A stretch of 64,000 bases of DNA from Clostridia bacterium (GTDB lineage: Bacteria > Bacillota > Clostridia > Christensenellales > UBA1242): the NCBI GenBank assembly GCA_045594425.1, contig JAZNYK010000003.1, positions 2,929-66,928 on the forward strand, in the 5' to 3' direction. Below are positions 54,030-60,464 of the stretch, in pieces (position 1 is the stretch's first letter; each line of letters starts with the position of its first letter). The notes beneath the pieces were generated by a model. That model was not told where the DNA came from. It did not search any database and saw only the letters and a program-made list of their open reading frames with translations. Both the position numbers and the translations under genes were made by a program.

Positions 54030-55238
54030 ATGGCAAAAGCAAAATTTGAATCTAAAAAACCTCACGTTAACATTGGTACAATCGGCCACGTTGACCACGG
54101 TAAAACAACTTTAACTGCTGCAATCACAATGAATCAAACACACAAATATGGTGGTGATGCTAAAGATTACAGCCAAATCGACTCTGCTCCAGAAGAAAGA
54201 GCAAGAGGTATCACAATCAACACAGCACACGTTGAATATGAAACAGACAACAGACACTATGCACACGTTGACTGCCCAGGACACGCTGACTACGTTAAGA
54301 ACATGATTACTGGTGCTGCTCAAATGGACGGTGCTATCCTTGTTTGTGCTGCAACTGATGGTGTTATGCCTCAAACTCGTGAACACATCCTTCTTGCTCG
54401 TCAAGTAGGCGTTCCAAAAATTGTTGTATTCATGAACAAAATTGACCAACTTGGTGGCGACACAGAACTTGCTGACCTTGTTGAAATGGAAATCAGAGAA
54501 CTCCTTTCAAAATACGAATATGATGGAGACAACACTCCAATCGTTCGTGGTTCTGCATTCCTTGCTCTTGAAGCAGCTAAAGCAGGCAACTATGATTCAG
54601 AAGATACAAAATGCATCGCTGAACTTATGGATGCAGTTGACTCTTGGATTCCAACTCCAGACCGTGCTACAGACCAACCATTCCTTATGCCAGTTGAAGA
54701 CGTATTCACAATCACTGGTCGTGGTACTGTTGTTACTGGTAGAGTTGAAAGAGGTGTTCTTAAAACTGGTGAAACAGTTGAAATCGTAGGTCTTGAAGAT
54801 AAGCCAAAGACTTCAGTTGTTACTGGTATCGAAATGTTCAGAAAAACTCTTGATGAAGCCGTTGCAGGTTACAACGTAGGTGTTCTTCTTAGAGGTATCG
54901 ACAGAACTGAAGTTCAAAGAGGTCAAATCCTTTCTAAACCAGGAACTGTTCATCCACACACAAACTTTGAAGCACAAGTTTACGTATTGACAAAAGAAGA
55001 AGGTGGTCGTCACACTGCATTCTTCAACAACTATCGTCCACAATTCTACTTCAGAACAACTGACGTTACAGGTTCAATCGCTCTTCCAGAAGGAACAGAA
55101 ATGGTTATGCCTGGTGACCACACAAAGATGACTGTAGAACTCATCTCTCCAGTTGCTATTGAAGAAGGACTTCGTTTCGCTATCCGTGAAGGTGGCAGAA
55201 CTGTAGGTTCTGGTGTTGTTTCTAAAATTATTAAATAA
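54030..55238 (+). CDS. tuf: Elongation factor Tu
   Basis: [10 protein letters not shown] and DCPGHADY. 402 aa. Confidence 0.96.
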
Positions 55239-55266
55239 TTTTAAACAAAACTAAATCTTTAAATTA

Positions 55267-55300
55267 AAACACTTTGCTATTTAGCAGGGTGTTTTTTTGT
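55267..55300 (+). terminator. Rho-independent terminator after tuf
   Basis: AACACTTTGCTA-TT-TAGCAGGGTGTT (with G-U pairs) followed by TTTTTTT. Confidence 0.8.
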
Positions 55301-55340
55301 GTGTAAAAATTATAAATTTTCATATTAACTCATTTTTTCT

Positions 55341-55368
55341 TTGATAAATTGTTTTTTATTGTTACAAT
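55341..55368 (+). promoter_or_regulatory. Putative promoter of cassette 1
   Basis: TTGATA-16 nt-TACAAT. Confidence 0.5.
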
Positions 55369-55397
55369 AAAATTAATAAAATATTAAGGTGATAATT

Positions 55398-56306
55398 ATG
55401 ACAGCAAAAGTAGAAGTTCCAAAAAAGAGAAGAGTTGAAGGTTTAATAGGATTTGGAAAAGCCAAAGATGTTGTTAGTAGTTTGATAGTTTCTGCAGGCG
55501 CGATAATGACCCATTCGGCTTATGATGATGCAATGGCACAATTTGATGTGGCTAAAGTTTATGCAAAAGGCGCGGCTGCTCATGTTCAAACAAGAGCAAA
55601 AACTATAATTGGTTCTGAAGAAGAAAGACAAATCGCAAAAGAACAAATTACTGAAATGGATGTTCGAAAAGCGGTTTTTCAAAAAACATTAAACATTCTT
55701 GGTTGGTCTGAAGACCAGTATAAGACTTTGATGGATGACAGAAATTATATCAGAGCACAAAAACAGCAAAAACCTCAAAAACCTGAATCTGAAGCAGAAG
55801 AAATGAAAAACCTTATGGATGATTTTCATAGGTCAAACGAAAGAACAAAAGACAACATGAAGGAAGCAGGAAAAGAGTTATTGGGTCTTGTGGAATATAT
55901 TCCTGCGGTTGCCGCACTTGCAATAAATCCAGCTATTGGTATTTCTATAGCGGTTGTTGTTACTGGGATTAAAATGATTGGCCATTATCGAGAAGGTAAA
56001 AAATTGGAAGCAGAAGCAACTAGGCGTGGTGGCAACTATGCGGATAAAATTATGAATTTTGCTGATAAACTTGTAAAACTTGAAGAACTTTTAGATACGA
56101 AAATGAATGGAATAATTGAAAAATATAAAGGCAGAGAGAATGATGCTGAATTTACAGCAGAACTCGACACAATTATTCGTAGTGCGGCTGCAGAAGTTGG
56201 ATTAGGTGTGAGTGATGCCAAGACTGTATCTAAAATAATTCCTAAAAAGGAAACAGTGCAAGATAAACTTGCAAGCAAGGTTGAAGTTGGTTCAATTAAG
56301 GATTAA
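55398..56306 (+). CDS. Hypothetical helical protein A1 (302 aa) with a central hydrophobic hairpin
   Basis: Start moved to ATG 55398. Residues about 161-196 read LLGLVEYIPAVAALAINPAIGISIAVVVTGIKMIGH, two short hydrophobic helices split by NP. Charged helical regions flank them. No signal peptide. Confidence 0.65.
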   Translation: MTAKVEVPKKRRVEGLIGFGKAKDVVSSLIVSAGAIMTHSAYDDAMAQFDVAKVYAKGAAAHVQTRAKTIIGSEEERQIAKEQITEMDVRKAVFQKTLNILGWSEDQYKTLMDDRNYIRAQKQQKPQKPESEAEEMKNLMDDFHRSNERTKDNMKEAGKELLGLVEYIPAVAALAINPAIGISIAVVVTGIKMIGHYREGKKLEAEATRRGGNYADKIMNFADKLVKLEELLDTKMNGIIEKYKGRENDAEFTAELDTIIRSAAAEVGLGVSDAKTVSKIIPKKETVQDKLASKVEVGSIKD

Positions 56307-56317
56307 TGGGGTGAAAT

Positions 56318-56593
56318 ATGAGTATTGGTTTTGTAGCGAAAAAGGGTGAAATGATGCTCTTGGAAGGCGGTGAAGCATACATCGTGATTGACCAAATTGC
56401 TTTTGAGGGTGAAAATTATTTGTTGATAAAAAAGGTTACTGATAGTTTGACGGATTACATGGACTTAAAAAAAGAGGTTTCTTTTGTTCGTGAAGTCATT
56501 GAAAATGAAACAGATTATTCAGTTGAAACCGTTACAAGCAAAACTCTTTTAAAGAGTTTATTTGATGAAGCAAAGAAAAAAGTGCAAAAGTAA
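56318..56593 (+). CDS. Small DUF1292-like protein B1 (91 aa)
   Basis: Sits 11 nt after A1 with SD GGGGTGAAA. YIVIDQIAFEGENYLLIKKV...SFVREVIENETDYSVETV fits the DUF1292 pattern (y.v...fe.eg..Y.ll.p...v.i.r...e.e..le.i.d). Confidence 0.6.
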   Translation: MSIGFVAKKGEMMLLEGGEAYIVIDQIAFEGENYLLIKKVTDSLTDYMDLKKEVSFVREVIENETDYSVETVTSKTLLKSLFDEAKKKVQK

Positions 56594-56596
56594 TGC

Positions 56597-56627
56597 AAAA
56601 CAGCGCCATTTGGTGCTGTTTTTTGTT
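56597..56627 (+). terminator. Rho-independent terminator
   Basis: AACAGCGCC-ATTT-GGTGCTGTT followed by TTTTT. Confidence 0.8.
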
Positions 56628-56697
56628 GGAAAACATATCAAATTATGTGTATAATTGAAAATGTAAACTAAAATTTATTAATCAAAAGAGGTTGATT

Positions 56698-57663
56698 ATG
56701 GCTAAACATAAAGTGGAAAGCATTGTTTCAGTTGATGAATTATTAGAGCAACTTGGAAGTGGGCTTTCAAAAGAGGAATATTCAAAATTTGCGGTTCAAG
56801 TGAAAAAGATGCTAGAGGAAAATAAAAGTGAAACAAACACAAACACTGTTGTTGCTCAAGCAAAAACACTTAAGACTGAAAGCAAATTAAGTGCAAAAGA
56901 ACAAGCAAAAGAAGATGACAGATTTAATCGTATCAGACAAAGATTGATTGAAGAAGTTTTTGGTGTGTCTGCAAAAGACCAAGAGAAACTTATGGAACAA
57001 GGCGAGCAAGCATCTAAACTTTTGGCTGATGGTGCAAGGTCTGATTATCAAACTGTTAAGGATAAAGAAAATGTTTTGGGTGCTGCTGAAACAGCCGACA
57101 AAAAGGCTAGAAGAGAACTTCTTGCGGGTTCACTTGACGTGGCTCTTGCAATTGGTGGTCTTGCTTCTGAACAAATTGCTGGATTGGTTGCTACAATCAC
57201 AGGTGTGTCGGTTGCTTTTCCAGTGATTGGTGCGGCTTTAACAACTTTTGTATTTGGTGTTAAACTTGCAAAATATATCAAAGCATCAAAACAAAGCAAA
57301 AGTGACATTGCTTCAAAAAAAGAAGATTTTTTGAAAGATGTTGCAGAATTAACACAAAGAATCAAAGTGTTTAGTGATATGCTTGAGTCTAAAAAAGCAG
57401 AGATTCTTGCAGAGTCTAAAAAATGCAAAAGCAAAGAAGAGTTTAATAATTTCATTAAAGGTAAGGCACAAGAAATTTCTGAACTTATTCAAGCAAAGGG
57501 CAGTGAACTTGGAATTGATAATGTAGAAGAAATGGACTTAAAGAAACTTACTGAAGAGTATGATATGCAAAAACAAAATGAAATCACCAAGCGTGCGTCT
57601 ATTGAATCAAGACACAAAGAAGAACATAAAAGTAGCATTGGGGAAGAAGAAAGAAGTCTATAG
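56698..57663 (+). CDS. Hypothetical helical protein A2 (321 aa), distant paralog of A1
   Basis: Start moved to ATG 56698, which follows AAGAGG. Residues about 141-192 read LLAGSLDVALAIGGLASEQIAGLVATITGVSVAFPVIGAALTTFVFGVKLAK. Architecture matches A1, and both hairpins are preceded by (K/R)ELL. Confidence 0.65.
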   Translation: MAKHKVESIVSVDELLEQLGSGLSKEEYSKFAVQVKKMLEENKSETNTNTVVAQAKTLKTESKLSAKEQAKEDDRFNRIRQRLIEEVFGVSAKDQEKLMEQGEQASKLLADGARSDYQTVKDKENVLGAAETADKKARRELLAGSLDVALAIGGLASEQIAGLVATITGVSVAFPVIGAALTTFVFGVKLAKYIKASKQSKSDIASKKEDFLKDVAELTQRIKVFSDMLESKKAEILAESKKCKSKEEFNNFIKGKAQEISELIQAKGSELGIDNVEEMDLKKLTEEYDMQKQNEITKRASIESRHKEEHKSSIGEEERSL

Positions 57664-57705
57664 ATAAAATTGAATTATTAAAAAATTAAAACAGGGGAAT
57701 AAATT

Positions 57706-57972
57706 ATGAATTTTGTTAGTAAAGTTGGAGATGTTTTGCATCTTGCTGATATTGAAACTGTTTATCAAGTTGCAAAGTGTTTTGAATTTGAAGGTGAAAA
57801 CTATATTTTGGCAGTTTCTGTTCCAGAAAAATTTGAAGAATTGTTTGATGATTCAAAGAAAACTATAGAAATTTTCAGAGAAGTTGTTGAAGATAATGAC
57901 GAGTTTTTTGTTGAATCAATTGAAGATAGTGTGCTTCTTTCAAAACTTAAAGACTATGTAAAAACATTATAA
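57706..57972 (+). CDS. Small DUF1292-like protein B2 (88 aa), paralog of B1
   Basis: Shares FEGENY(L/I)L, FREV(I/V)E(N/D), VE(T/S) and LL(K/S)(S/K)L with B1. SD AGGGGAATAAA. Confidence 0.6.
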   Translation: MNFVSKVGDVLHLADIETVYQVAKCFEFEGENYILAVSVPEKFEELFDDSKKTIEIFREVVEDNDEFFVESIEDSVLLSKLKDYVKTL

Positions 57973-58000
57973 AAAAGGGCGAGAGCCCTTTCTTTTTGTT
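57973..58000 (+). terminator. Rho-independent terminator
   Basis: AAGGGC-GAGA-GCCCTT followed by TCTTTTTGTTT. Confidence 0.8.
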
Positions 58001-58010
58001 TGCTATGGTA

Positions 58011-58039
58011 TTTACAAATAATGCAAATTAGGTTAAAAT
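58011..58039 (+). promoter_or_regulatory. Putative promoter placed so that transcription would start at or next to the ATG of the kinase-like gene (possibly leaderless mRNA)
   Basis: TTTACA-17 nt-TAAAAT ends 6 nt before ATG 58046. No SD precedes that ATG. Confidence 0.45.
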
Positions 58040-58045
58040 ATAGGT

Positions 58046-59467
58046 ATGAACATTAAATATAGAGAAAGTTTAAACGAACAAATTAGAAAATTTATAGCAA
58101 TTGGCGAGTGGGATGAAAAACCTCGTTTTACTGACATCAAAAGAACAATAACAGTTGGTGCCAGTATGTTTTATACTGCAATTGCAAAAACTGATGGAAG
58201 ATATGGTGTTAAAGCGGGTGATTTGGTTTATTTTAAGAAAAACCCAACACGTGGCGTAAACCCAAATAATGCTAGAACTGATGAAGCCAGAGGAAGTTGT
58301 GAAGATATTGGTGAAGTTTTAACACACTTTACAGTTAAAGCCATGAATGAAAAACTTGGTGATGATGCTGTTTTTGAAGTTACACCTTATGACTTTGCCG
58401 AATATGAAGACGATATTTTTTGGTCGGCTATTGCAAAAGAAACATCGGCTCTTGTAAAAAGTAAAAGAATTTATGGTTGTATGTCACCAAACTGTATTGA
58501 CCCTAATGGTGAAATTATTCACGGAAACACTTTAATAAGGTGTTTAATGCCAAATGTAAAATCAATCAGAAGTGATGATAACACTTTATACAACTATCAA
58601 ATGGCAAGTCTTGCATATGCAGAGCAAGCAAAAGAAAAAGGTCAAGAAGTATTAATCCATCCAAAGAATGCTAGGGCAGACTTCGTTGAACTTATGGTTG
58701 ACTTTATGGGTGGCAATAGCGACAGACACTGCAAGAACAGAACAAAACAAATTATAAAACTTCCTGATGGAAGGGCTGTTTTGGTTAATACTACTGGTCT
58801 TGATAACGGTGGTGTTTTGGGTCTTCAGAGCACAAATTGTTATAATTTGTTTATGAATCAATATCAAAAATTAATGGAAAAAGGGAAACTTCTTCCTTTT
58901 GAAGAACATTCAGGATTTATTGACCGCTCACCATTCAATCAATATTTTGACTTTACTATTGGTGCTGAATGTTTCAAAGATAAACGAATTGCAAATGCTT
59001 ATCAAAATTTGTCTTATGAAGAACAAATTGTTGCACTTGTCAGTCAAAACAAAATTTTGTTTAATGATTTAAAAAATGTGTATCAACATTTTGATTATGA
59101 TGCTGGTGCAAGGTTAATGAAAAAACACGTTAAGTTTAATTATTTAACATCTGATGAAATCGAACGTCTTGAAGGTTTGGGAAGAACAGTTGACCATGTC
59201 AATGGTTCACATCTCCCAGGTATGCATTTAGTTGCAGCGGCTCAACTTGAAATGAAGCGTGAAATGTTAAGCAGAGCAATGGCAAATGTTATGGGTGTTG
59301 CGTTTGATGAAGAATTATTCAAGCAAAACAAGATGTATTATGTTGATATGTTTGAACCTTATGTTAAAGAAAATGAACTAACTATTCACATTGCTTCAAA
59401 TGCAGAAATCAAAACCTTCGACAAGCAAATTGAAGAAATAAAACAAAGTGCAAAACAAAAACAATAA
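58046..59467 (+). CDS. HipA-like (HipT-like) Ser/Thr kinase-fold protein lacking the HipA N-subdomain, with a roughly 170-aa C-terminal helical extension
   Basis: ADFVELMVDFMGGNSDRHCKNRTKQIIKLPDGRAVLVNTTGLDNGG aligns with E. coli HipA FQWLIGATDGHAKNFSVFIQAGGSYRLTPFYDIIS (catalytic D-x-H-x-K-N plus a distal Asp). ITVGASMFYTAI aligns with the HipA P-loop ISVAGAQEKTAL but lacks QEK. Confidence 0.5.
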   Translation: MNIKYRESLNEQIRKFIAIGEWDEKPRFTDIKRTITVGASMFYTAIAKTDGRYGVKAGDLVYFKKNPTRGVNPNNARTDEARGSCEDIGEVLTHFTVKAMNEKLGDDAVFEVTPYDFAEYEDDIFWSAIAKETSALVKSKRIYGCMSPNCIDPNGEIIHGNTLIRCLMPNVKSIRSDDNTLYNYQMASLAYAEQAKEKGQEVLIHPKNARADFVELMVDFMGGNSDRHCKNRTKQIIKLPDGRAVLVNTTGLDNGGVLGLQSTNCYNLFMNQYQKLMEKGKLLPFEEHSGFIDRSPFNQYFDFTIGAECFKDKRIANAYQNLSYEEQIVALVSQNKILFNDLKNVYQHFDYDAGARLMKKHVKFNYLTSDEIERLEGLGRTVDHVNGSHLPGMHLVAAAQLEMKREMLSRAMANVMGVAFDEELFKQNKMYYVDMFEPYVKENELTIHIASNAEIKTFDKQIEEIKQSAKQKQ

Positions 59468-59479
59468 TTGGAGTTTATT

Positions 59480-59797
59480 ATGAAAGTTATTAAAGTTTGT
59501 TACAAAGATATTGTGCTTGGAAAACTCACCTTTCAAGAGGGTGTTTATTGCTATGAGGCGTCAAAAATAGGCGTTGACAAGGCATACAAAAAAGGTTACA
59601 CAACATTTGTTTATGATTGCGACCAAAGTTTTGTTAGTGACACATTGCCGGCTGCATTCCAAGATTTGATTTCCGAAGAAATAGTTGCAAATATTTCTTC
59701 GTTAACAGAGATTTTGGAAACCGACACAGAGTTTGATGTGCTTTATAAATTTGCGGCTTTAGATGTTGGCAAACCAGATTTCCATGTTGAAATTTAA
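59480..59797 (+). CDS. HipS-like protein (stand-alone HipA N-terminal subdomain, about 105 aa)
   Basis: IKVCYKDIVLGKLTFQEGVYCYE, TLPAAFQDLISEE and EFDVLYKFAALDVGKPDF align with HipA LVTWMNNQRVGELTKLANGAHTFKY, FNFFDNLLPDS and PFDLLSEIGRDSVGAV. Start moved to ATG 59480, which follows TTGGAG. Confidence 0.55.
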   Translation: MKVIKVCYKDIVLGKLTFQEGVYCYEASKIGVDKAYKKGYTTFVYDCDQSFVSDTLPAAFQDLISEEIVANISSLTEILETDTEFDVLYKFAALDVGKPDFHVEI

Positions 59798-59804
59798 AAA
59801 ATTT

Positions 59805-59835
59805 ACCCCGCCTCACAAAAAGGCGGGTTTTTTGT
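59805..59835 (+). terminator. Rho-independent terminator
   Basis: CCCGCCT-CACAAAA-AGGCGGG followed by TTTTTT. Confidence 0.85.
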
Positions 59836-59900
59836 TTGCTAAATTTTAAAAACATAATATAATGTATATGGACAAAATTAAAATATCTGCAGGTGAATAA

Positions 59901-60155
59901 ATGAATCTTAAGAAGGCAGTTGCCGAAAGACTTTCACAAATTTTAAGAGAAAGAAGTTTAACTCAATATGCACTATATAAAATTTCCGGCGTGCCACAAA
60001 GCACAATAAGCACAATTTTAAACGGTGACATAAAAACAATCAAGTTAAGCACACTTCACGATATATGCGTGGGGCTGGGCATAAATCTTTCAGATTTCTT
60101 TGCCACAGATTCACTAAAAAATCATAGTTTAAAAAACCAACACGAAACCGATTAG
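59901..60155 (+). CDS. Small XRE-family HTH protein (84 aa)
   Basis: RLSQILRERSLTQYALYKISGVPQSTISTILNGDIKTIKLSTLHDICVGLGINLSDFF is a Cro/C1 HTH. SD AGGTGAATAA. Confidence 0.75.
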   Translation: MNLKKAVAERLSQILRERSLTQYALYKISGVPQSTISTILNGDIKTIKLSTLHDICVGLGINLSDFFATDSLKNHSLKNQHETD

Positions 60156-60168
60156 TGTTGGTTTTTTG
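60135..60168 (+). terminator. Rho-independent terminator overlapping the HTH gene stop codon
   Basis: AACCAACAC...GTGTTGGTT followed by TTTT. Confidence 0.8.
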
Positions 60169-60464
60169 TTTGCTTTAAAATTTAAACCAAAAACGTCAAA
60201 AAGTTTAAATGTTTTGCATGAAAATTTTTGAAAATTATTGACACTATTTGACATTCATGTTATCATAATATAGCATACCATAATTATCATCATAAGTATG
60301 CCCTTTTGGGCGATAGTTATGGTTTTATAAGTCAATTGTGTAGATATTAACATAATTTTGTCCTTTTTATTTGTTTAATATGGAATCGACTATCTTTTGG
60401 CTTCGCTAGAAATTTGTGCTTATTATCAAAAATGACTCTTTTTAATATTTTTTGGGAGGACTAC

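Follow-up and report, generated by a model that had tools for sequence, protein, structure and literature searches.

The window analysed here, a stretch of 64,000 nucleotides (nt) of Clostridia bacterium DNA, carries between tuf (54030-55238) and rpoB (start 60465) a long kinase gene, a small gene directly behind it and an XRE-family helix-turn-helix (HTH) gene, and the question raised by this locus is what kind of system these genes form. The original prediction saw in them a split HipA-like kinase whose missing N-terminal subdomain is supplied by the second gene, the whole mirroring the tripartite HipBST system in reversed order. The three open reading frames (ORFs) lie where it had placed them and the motifs that it quoted are real. 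Its central claim also holds, since fold, profile-profile and motif evidence agree that the kinase is a HipA core without N-subdomain 1, the latter being encoded as a separate downstream gene. By layout, this pair of genes corresponds to hipJS, an organisation already described, and it probably acts as a toxin-antitoxin (TA) or defence switch.

The kinase and its HipS-like partner

In the kinase, the quoted motifs were located at residues 35-44 (ITVGASMFYT), 222-231 (GGNSDRHCKN) and 251-255 (GLDNG), and the E. coli HipA strings used for comparison (GATDGHAKN, FYD and FDLLSEIGRDSVG) are present in NP_416024. The features recognised in the protein are a Gly-loop equivalent (T36-V-G38-A-S40), a beta3 lysine (K64), alphaC glutamates (E86/E90), a catalytic loop (D226-R-H-C-K-N231) and a Mg loop (D253-N-G255). 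Across the alignment of the kinase family, which comprises 15 sequences, S40, F63-K64, G83-S-C-E-D87, E90, N224-x-D-R-H-C-(K)-N231 and D253-N-G255 are invariant and G38 is nearly so, a pattern expected of a kinase, in which each of the five elements just listed is represented. The S-x-x-G-x-Q-E-K signature of the Gly-rich loop is not present in the kinase, and the absence of QEK, already pointed out in the original prediction, turned out to be the consensus of the family, whose loop reads [ST]-V-G-x-S-x-[IF]-[YF]-T-A. Nevertheless, since G38 falls in the beta-hairpin turn of the AlphaFold2 (AF2) model, an equivalent but divergent Gly loop is present.

The AF2 model of the kinase (predicted local distance difference test score, pLDDT, 78.6; predicted template-modelling score, pTM, 0.80) was compared with the PDB using Foldseek. 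The best match was Shewanella HipA (4pu5, E 1e-4, probability 1.00), and Helicobacter pylori CtkA (3akk, probability 1.00, template-modelling (TM) score on target 0.56-0.60) and E. coli HipA entries (3tpd, 3dnu) were also found, the probabilities for HipA and CtkA being 0.9-1.0. Membership of the kinase in the HipA superfamily is close to certain. CtkA, a secreted pro-inflammatory kinase of a plasticity zone, is likewise a HipA-fold kinase without N-subdomain 1 (3AKJ/3AKK) and gives the best TM on target; its identity with the window protein is 10-11%, and we know of no HipS-like partner for it. A CtkA-like secreted effector role was set aside, only the fold speaking for such a role.

The 105-aa (amino acid) product of the second gene was modelled with a pLDDT of 90.6, and its top five PDB matches in Foldseek were with Legionella HipS (7vkb_B, 8ezr_A), E. 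coli O127 HipS (7ab3) and the isolated HipA N-domain (7czo), with TM scores of 0.56-0.68 and probabilities of 0.82-1.00, the probabilities for HipS being 0.97-1.00. That it has the HipS fold, equivalent to HipA N-subdomain 1, is close to certain. The correspondence with HipA residues 1-110 claimed in the original prediction is thus upheld by the fold; the three-block sequence alignment offered for it was not recovered, as hhalign of the HipS-like family against the single E. coli HipA aligned nothing relevant, the quoted string FDVLYKFAALDVG being nonetheless present in the protein. The Pfam scan gave no HIRAN domain match in the 105-aa partner.

The prediction had further staked the homology on a significant HipA_C or HipA_N profile match, which the window's own proteins did not give. 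The kinase yielded no Pfam HipA_C or NCBIfam match at E<=1 and did not reach the HipA_C gathering cut-off of 30.5 bits, while the HipS-like protein yielded no Pfam or NCBIfam match with HipA_N or Couple_hipA at E<=1. PDB sequence searches with the window proteins returned noise only, and aldehyde dehydrogenase, nigerythrin, cyanoglobin and Baculo_19 were dismissed as noise among the top Pfam, NCBIfam and PDB matches. The homology was rescued at the family level. In fact, a Pfam scan of every member gave sub-threshold HipA_C matches in 4 of the 15 kinases (best E 0.0082) and sub-threshold Couple_hipA matches in 5 of 9 small proteins (best E 0.0018). Moreover, the kinase family profile reached three proteins (P0052, P0054 and P0057; library-wide E ~1e-5) which score 34.8-43.9 bits on HipA_C, above its cut-off, and when the family was compared with aligned HipA_C proteins, hhalign gave a probability of 99.6% (E 8e-25) for the segment 60-264, each motif facing its counterpart. 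When E. coli HipA was used as a single sequence, only the catalytic loop was aligned (E 0.054, not significant), the catalytic residues falling on their HipA counterparts (D226=D309, N231=N314), as the original prediction required.

The kinases of the family measure 445-542 aa, that of the window 473 aa. The C-terminal extension, put at about 170 aa in the original prediction, comprises some 100-110 helical residues in excess of those that follow the Mg loop in HipA and in short Hip kinases. Homologous kinases form 19 clusters among 5.8 billion proteins, and the family is rare, given 44 profile matches in 1.84 billion representatives. This long kinase branch, rare and previously unannotated, is new.

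Relatives and published Hip organisations

Ten Hip gene organisations were defined by Gerdes, Baerentsen and Brodersen in 2021 (PMC8262856). Clade XI of that scheme includes hipJS, where a short HipJ kinase is followed by HipS, and hipIN, where HipI is followed by HipN, a HipS-like protein with a HIRAN domain; hipJS was proposed to derive from hipIN via HIRAN loss (PMC8262856). The reversed order noted in the original prediction is therefore the published hipJS organisation, with hipIN as its HIRAN-bearing relative, which by the prediction's own standard lowers the novelty. In common with hipJS, the window module has a kinase without N-subdomain 1 followed by a free gene for a HipS of about 100 aa, no upstream HTH antitoxin, Ser/Thr residues beside the Gly-rich loop, as well as the motifs for catalysis and Mg binding. 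It departs from hipJS in the length of the kinase (279-321 aa in HipJ, with about 100 extra C-terminal helical residues in the window protein), in the Gly loop without QEK, in a sequence beyond the reach of Pfam HipA_C, in its conserved leaderless-type promoter and tuf-rpoB island location, and in one sub-clade which adds a separately transcribed downstream XRE gene, an arrangement outside the ten published organisations. The module is hipJS by layout, and in sequence it shows an indirect affinity to hipIN-type kinases.

This affinity was found through PADLOC, where the kinase matches PDC-M03A (E 2.4e-6) and the HipS-like protein PDC-M03B (E 2.6e-3), both weakly. A PDC-M03 locus (L023) encodes a 291-aa HipA_C kinase and then a partner of 233 aa whose N-terminus is HipS-like and which also contains HIRAN (E 1e-11), and because of this combination PDC-M03 can be equated with hipIN, in line with the description of HIRAN/HipA clusters as predicted defence genes (PMC11706625). 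The window pair resembles this type in its kinase-then-HipS-like order and in matching both models, and hhalign aligns the catalytic core as well as the N-terminal part of the partner; it differs in the partner without HIRAN (105 against 233 aa), in the much longer kinase and in the weakness of the scores.

With HipBST of E. coli O127:H6 and Legionella pneumophila (7AB3, 8EZR, 7VKB) the module shares the split HipA, the HipS fold, with TM scores of 0.62-0.68, the HipA-core kinase, an HTH gene nearby and two conserved Ser/Thr around the Gly-rich loop. Nevertheless, the order is kinase-HipS-(HTH) instead of B-S-T, there is no single operon headed by the HTH gene, which is transcribed by itself and which most relatives do without, and the kinase exceeds HipT by about 130 aa, with an identity of 9-19% in structural alignments that is undetectable by sequence. 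As regards HipBA of E. coli K-12, the superfamily fold is common to both and the catalytic D-x-H-x-K-N and the Mg-binding Asp align, whereas HipA has a fused N-subdomain 1, a QEK Gly-rich loop and an upstream HipB antitoxin.

The kinase gene followed by a gene for a HipS-like protein of 104-108 aa was found in loci L001, L002, L004, L005, L006, L007, L009, L010 and L029, and the same order recurs in very distant kinase paralogues of the same bacterial family (L013, L014, L015, L017, L019). With these distant pairs, the split Hip kinases form a wider radiation that is unannotated; in genomes G054, G103, G055, G032 and G130 their HipS-like proteins measure 107-108 aa and their kinases match the profile with E 1e-9 to 1e-31, G103 and G054 having two HipS-like genes each. 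In the related loci the HipS-like gene starts <=50 nt past the kinase stop (the gap is 12 nt in the window, and the frames overlap in L005) and a Shine-Dalgarno (SD) sequence, GGAG, GTGGAG, AGGGG or AAGGA, lies 6-9 nt before its ATG in every one of them. The promoter which the original prediction saw ending 6 nt before the kinase ATG, with no SD, was found by the pattern scan, and this arrangement, TTTAC[A/T]-17 nt-TA[A/T]AAT followed by 6-7 nt and the kinase ATG, is kept with divergent spacers in 8 of 9 related loci, the only exception being the integrase-linked copy in L006, with a GAGG leader. Furthermore, L029 has exactly the same 73 nt in front of its kinase ATG (100% identity), despite a synonymous divergence (dS) of ~0.59 in the coding sequence. 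Judged from these sequences, the kinase cistron would be leaderless and the inhibitor cistron behind it SD-driven.

Most close homologues lie directly upstream of rpoB, usually after tuf, while the copy in L006 adjoins a tyrosine integrase gene and that in L007 is near recR/dnaX. The presence of the kinase is patchy, as it was detected in 2 of 5 genomes of the genus and in 12 of the 151 of the family, most of them with weak matches. In a kinase-less congener (G122, locus L027) the tuf-rpoB interval holds unrelated ORFs of 593, 99, 224, 170 and 146 aa, so that this interval (55239-60464 in the window) is a variable island; in G049 (L028) it holds an orphan kinase gene, then ybaK-like, cobW-like and clpB genes. 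Across related genomes the identity to the window is 92-97% for EF-Tu and 90-95.5% for RpoB, 38-51% for the kinase and 35-65% for the HipS-like protein. All three genes are under purifying selection, the ratios of non-synonymous to synonymous divergence (dN/dS) against L029, a 91%-identical relative, being 0.07 for the kinase, 0.13 for the HipS-like gene and 0.03 for the HTH gene (dS 0.54-0.69).

Two orphan kinases, in L003 (5001-6341) and in G049/L028 (4981-6339, minus strand), stand directly after tuf with no HipS-like gene beside them, and in G049 a HipS-like gene was found nowhere in the genome. Both keep FK, DRHC[KR]N and DNG, and both have lost G38, SDSVS and RLFMS replacing [ST]VGxS; they sit on the longest branches of a 12-kinase tree whose base is unresolved. 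The coincidence of HipS loss with decay of the Gly loop, seen in two orphans that may stand for one or two events, fits a kinase which needs HipS in order to be tolerated. What is new in this locus and its relatives is the long and rare kinase branch, the leaderless-type promoter set against an SD-led HipS gene, the patchy occurrence in a variable island, the orphans without G38 and an HTH gene retained in a single sub-clade, while the kinase-then-HipS order was already named.

As for the third gene, its product is certainly of XRE fold and matches HTH_26 (E 9.5e-13) and HTH_3 (E 1.3e-7), and it matches the HipB and Y4mF antitoxin models weakly (E 3e-4 and 8e-4), reaching 20.7 bits on the HipB equivalog model (cut-off 79) and 19.4 bits on couple_hipB (cut-off 71.65). 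An HTH gene follows HipS in L009, L010 and L029, with an identity to that of the window of 62-68% in L009 and L010, whereas L001, L004, L006 and L007 have kinase and HipS but no HTH gene behind them. Paralogues exist in 72 of the 151 genomes of the family, and genomes without the kinase contain homologues of 52-59% identity, either as single genes or in tandem XRE arrays; in one related genome, four small XRE HTH paralogues form a tandem array (L032:568-1740). Given its absence from four loci, its scores far below the HipB cut-offs and its belonging to a common XRE family, the HTH protein is a non-obligatory component, conceivable as a regulator of the module but not a likely one. The same facts, namely a generic XRE gene, missing from several modules and with stand-alone homologues elsewhere, make the proposed mirror of HipBST shaky.

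Proposed action and competing explanations

In the action proposed for this hipJS-type pair, a bicistronic, chromosomally anchored module would encode a Ser/Thr kinase with an extra C-terminal helical region and a free HipS-like protein. The inhibitor HipS of HipBST wedges itself into the pocket that the ejected Gly-rich loop forms (PMC10627512). By analogy with HipBST of E. coli O127 and Legionella, the HipS-like protein would dock at the position of HipA N-subdomain 1 and hold the Gly-rich loop of the kinase inactive, ejected. Once free, the kinase would phosphorylate an essential translation component (an aminoacyl-tRNA synthetase in known relatives) and cause growth arrest, the system working as a toxin-antitoxin or abortive-defence switch. 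T/S36 and S40, flanking the loop glycine, are candidate autophosphorylation sites. Since the kinase comes first in the operon, an excess of the partner is probably set at translation, where a leaderless kinase mRNA against a HipS-like cistron with a canonical SD would yield more inhibitor than kinase. In the sub-clade having one, the separately transcribed XRE HTH protein may repress the operon.

Several observations weigh against this proposal. No curated HipA_C, Couple_hipA or NCBIfam model is significant on the window's own two proteins, and the Foldseek TM scores of the kinase are modest on the query (0.32-0.39). The Gly-rich loop is without the QEK of HipA and HipT, so that ATP handling may differ, and the orphans with intact catalytic residues indicate that the kinase may not be lethal alone. 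Clade XI is listed as experimentally untested, no toxicity having been shown for a hipJS-type module (PMC8262856). The distribution is accessory and patchy, as in type II TA systems, though the module was not found on phages, plasmids or viral (IMG/VR) contigs, viral structural neighbours were not found in BFVD either, and one fixed chromosomal site beside essential operons is occupied in genomes of 1.0-1.3 Mb. Finally, the leaderless-type promoter is not special to the kinase gene, because ~24 other of ~1250 long ORFs in genome G000 are preceded by paired -35 and -10 elements whose end lies 5-8 nt from the ATG, truA-, mnmE- and murC-like genes among them (e.g. C4:40030, C11:70433, C7:27976); this suggests that leaderless mRNAs are a regular minor class in the host organism.

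The gene order itself could be read in another way, as a tripartite HipBST-like system in a permuted T-S-B order, the HTH protein being an integral HipB equivalent which represses the kinase promoter and joins the complex. Four loci (the window, L009, L010 and L029), with kinases 49-51% identical to that of the window or closer, do have the HTH gene after HipS, all four keep the terminator and the HTH gene's own promoter and SD, selection on the HTH gene is very strong (dN/dS 0.03), and the weak HipB and Y4mF matches point the same way. However, the gene is missing from the four modules already named and is transcribed separately, its score on HipB is 20.7 instead of 79 bits, homologues stand alone in kinase-less genomes and paralogues are widespread, and no operator-like palindrome shared by, or specific to, the HTH-bearing promoters was found by eye; this permuted tripartite system is accordingly doubtful. 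An anti-phage abortive infection role, in which the pair is released by a phage cue, would be a functional refinement of the toxin-antitoxin or defence switch instead of a strict alternative to it. It draws on the matches of both proteins with the hipIN-type PDC-M03A and PDC-M03B models, on HIRAN/HipA clusters being predicted defence genes (PMC11706625) and on fast divergence, patchy presence and location in a variable island; yet the PADLOC scores are weak (E 2e-6 and 3e-3), PDC-M03 is itself an unvalidated candidate, the window partner has no HIRAN domain, the PADLOC scan of the flanks gave no recognisable defence genes and the host is uncultured, and such a role can be entertained but is not favoured.

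Further removed is the possibility of a non-toxic regulatory kinase, with the 105-aa protein as a required structural subunit which would complete the HipA-like fold and activate or target it in modulating factors of translation or transcription from the neighbouring genes (EF-Tu, RNA polymerase). Such a function would suit the tuf-rpoB position fixed in many genomes, the strong purifying selection on both genes, the reduced genomes (1.0-1.3 Mb) in which selfish modules are usually scarce, the tolerance of orphans with intact catalytic residues, and the fact that N-subdomain 1 belongs to the enzyme in HipA itself. Against it speak a presence that is patchy even within the genus, unrelated cargo at the same interval in a congener, copies outside the tuf-rpoB site, one of them by an integrase, a divergence far faster than that of the flanking core genes, and HipS being the inhibitor in both experimentally studied split systems (PMC10627512, PMC9325769), and it is considered improbable. 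That the module has a housekeeping role, as its place near tuf and rpoB might suggest, was set aside on similar grounds, its occurrence being patchy and the cargo of the site variable. The pair acting as a toxin-antitoxin or defence switch is the reading retained.

Taken together, these elements can be joined, tentatively, into a picture of an unclassified 'long HipJ-like' family confined to reduced-genome gut Clostridia, with a stoichiometry set by leaderless and SD-led translation, a co-dependence of HipS and Gly loop, a hot spot at the str-operon/rpoBC junction, and one sub-clade with a recruited XRE gene that gives the permuted T-S-B order. If true, a kinase could dispense with HipS only where the loop glycine is lost as well. 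In this context, split HipA kinases are a model for a domain turning into a trans-acting inhibitor of its own enzyme, and HipBST is the only split type studied experimentally, the toxin-first hipJS and hipIN being untested. The window family offers natural contrasts, with HipS-linked and orphan kinases differing at the Gly loop and modules with and without a downstream HTH gene, and its conserved leaderless/SD asymmetry would explain inhibitor excess in a toxin-first operon. Moreover, an entire branch of Hip kinases escapes the present profile libraries in uncultured gut Clostridia, where its proteins are unannotated.

Expression signals and neighbouring genes

The features of the locus are collected in Table 1. 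Terminators and promoters were sought with a pattern scan in which the terminator loop was limited to 8 nt, and which returned 9 terminator-like sites against 1.3 expected.

Table 1. Genes and expression signals of the kinase-HipS module and the HTH gene in the window
Feature	Position	Strand	Basis
Intrinsic terminator of the upstream DUF1292-like gene unit	57974..57999 including T-run (scan 57974-57991)	+	stem AAAGGGCGAGAGCCCTTT plus T-run
Sigma-70-type promoter, TTTACA-17-TAAAAT	58011..58039	+	scan, 10/12 matches; ends 6 nt before kinase ATG, no SD
HipA-superfamily Ser/Thr kinase gene, 473 aa	58046-59467	+	ORF, alignment, model
GGAG Shine-Dalgarno of the HipS-like gene	59470..59473	+	read from sequence; 3 nt after kinase stop
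HipS-like gene, 105 aa from the likely start, ATG 59480	59480-59797 (ORF open from 59468)	+	GGAG SD 6 nt before ATG
Strong intrinsic terminator of the kinase-HipS operon, CCCGCC-loop-GGCGGG plus T6	59807..59837 (scan 59807-59827 plus T-run)	+	scan
Promoter of the HTH gene, TTGCTA-16-TATAAT	59836..59863	+	scan, 10/12
Small XRE-family HTH gene, 84 aa	59901-60155	+	HTH profile matches
Terminator-like hairpin, AACCAACAC / GTGTTGGTT plus T-run	60135..60168	+	by eye; 11-nt loop contains HTH stop codon

The terminator at 57974 isolates the kinase operon from the genes before it. Behind the HipS-like gene, the strong terminator and the separate HTH promoter described in the original prediction were both found by the scan, the HTH gene having a leader of ~37 nt with a GGTGA SD. 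A hairpin occupies the same post-HipS place in L009, L010 and L029 with differing stem sequences, which implies compensatory changes, and an equivalent TATAAT or TAAAAT and an SD precede the HTH gene in L009 and L010; a terminator and an own promoter before the HTH gene are thus conserved within the HTH-bearing sub-clade. The last hairpin of Table 1 was missed by the scan because its loop exceeds the 8-nt limit. Three successive terminators have the tail TTTTTGTTTGCT in common (57994-58008, 59828-59841 and 60163-60176), and similar T-run-G-T terminator tails in the related loci may be a lineage-typical signature.

Just before the kinase, the window carries two copies of a gene pair (55389-57972), in tandem, each encoding a helical protein of 300-420 aa with a central hydrophobic hairpin and a DUF1292-like protein of about 90 aa. 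Such pairs are found in most tuf-rpoB loci, being also present in L001, L004, L009, L010 and L029 and absent in L003, L006 and L007; they share the island with the kinase and are outside the Hip module. On the other side, two overlapping TTGACA-17-TAnCAT promoters were seen upstream of rpoB (60190-60300), in a region which is near-identical in the window, L029 and L009 and conserved far above the neighbouring intergenic DNA.

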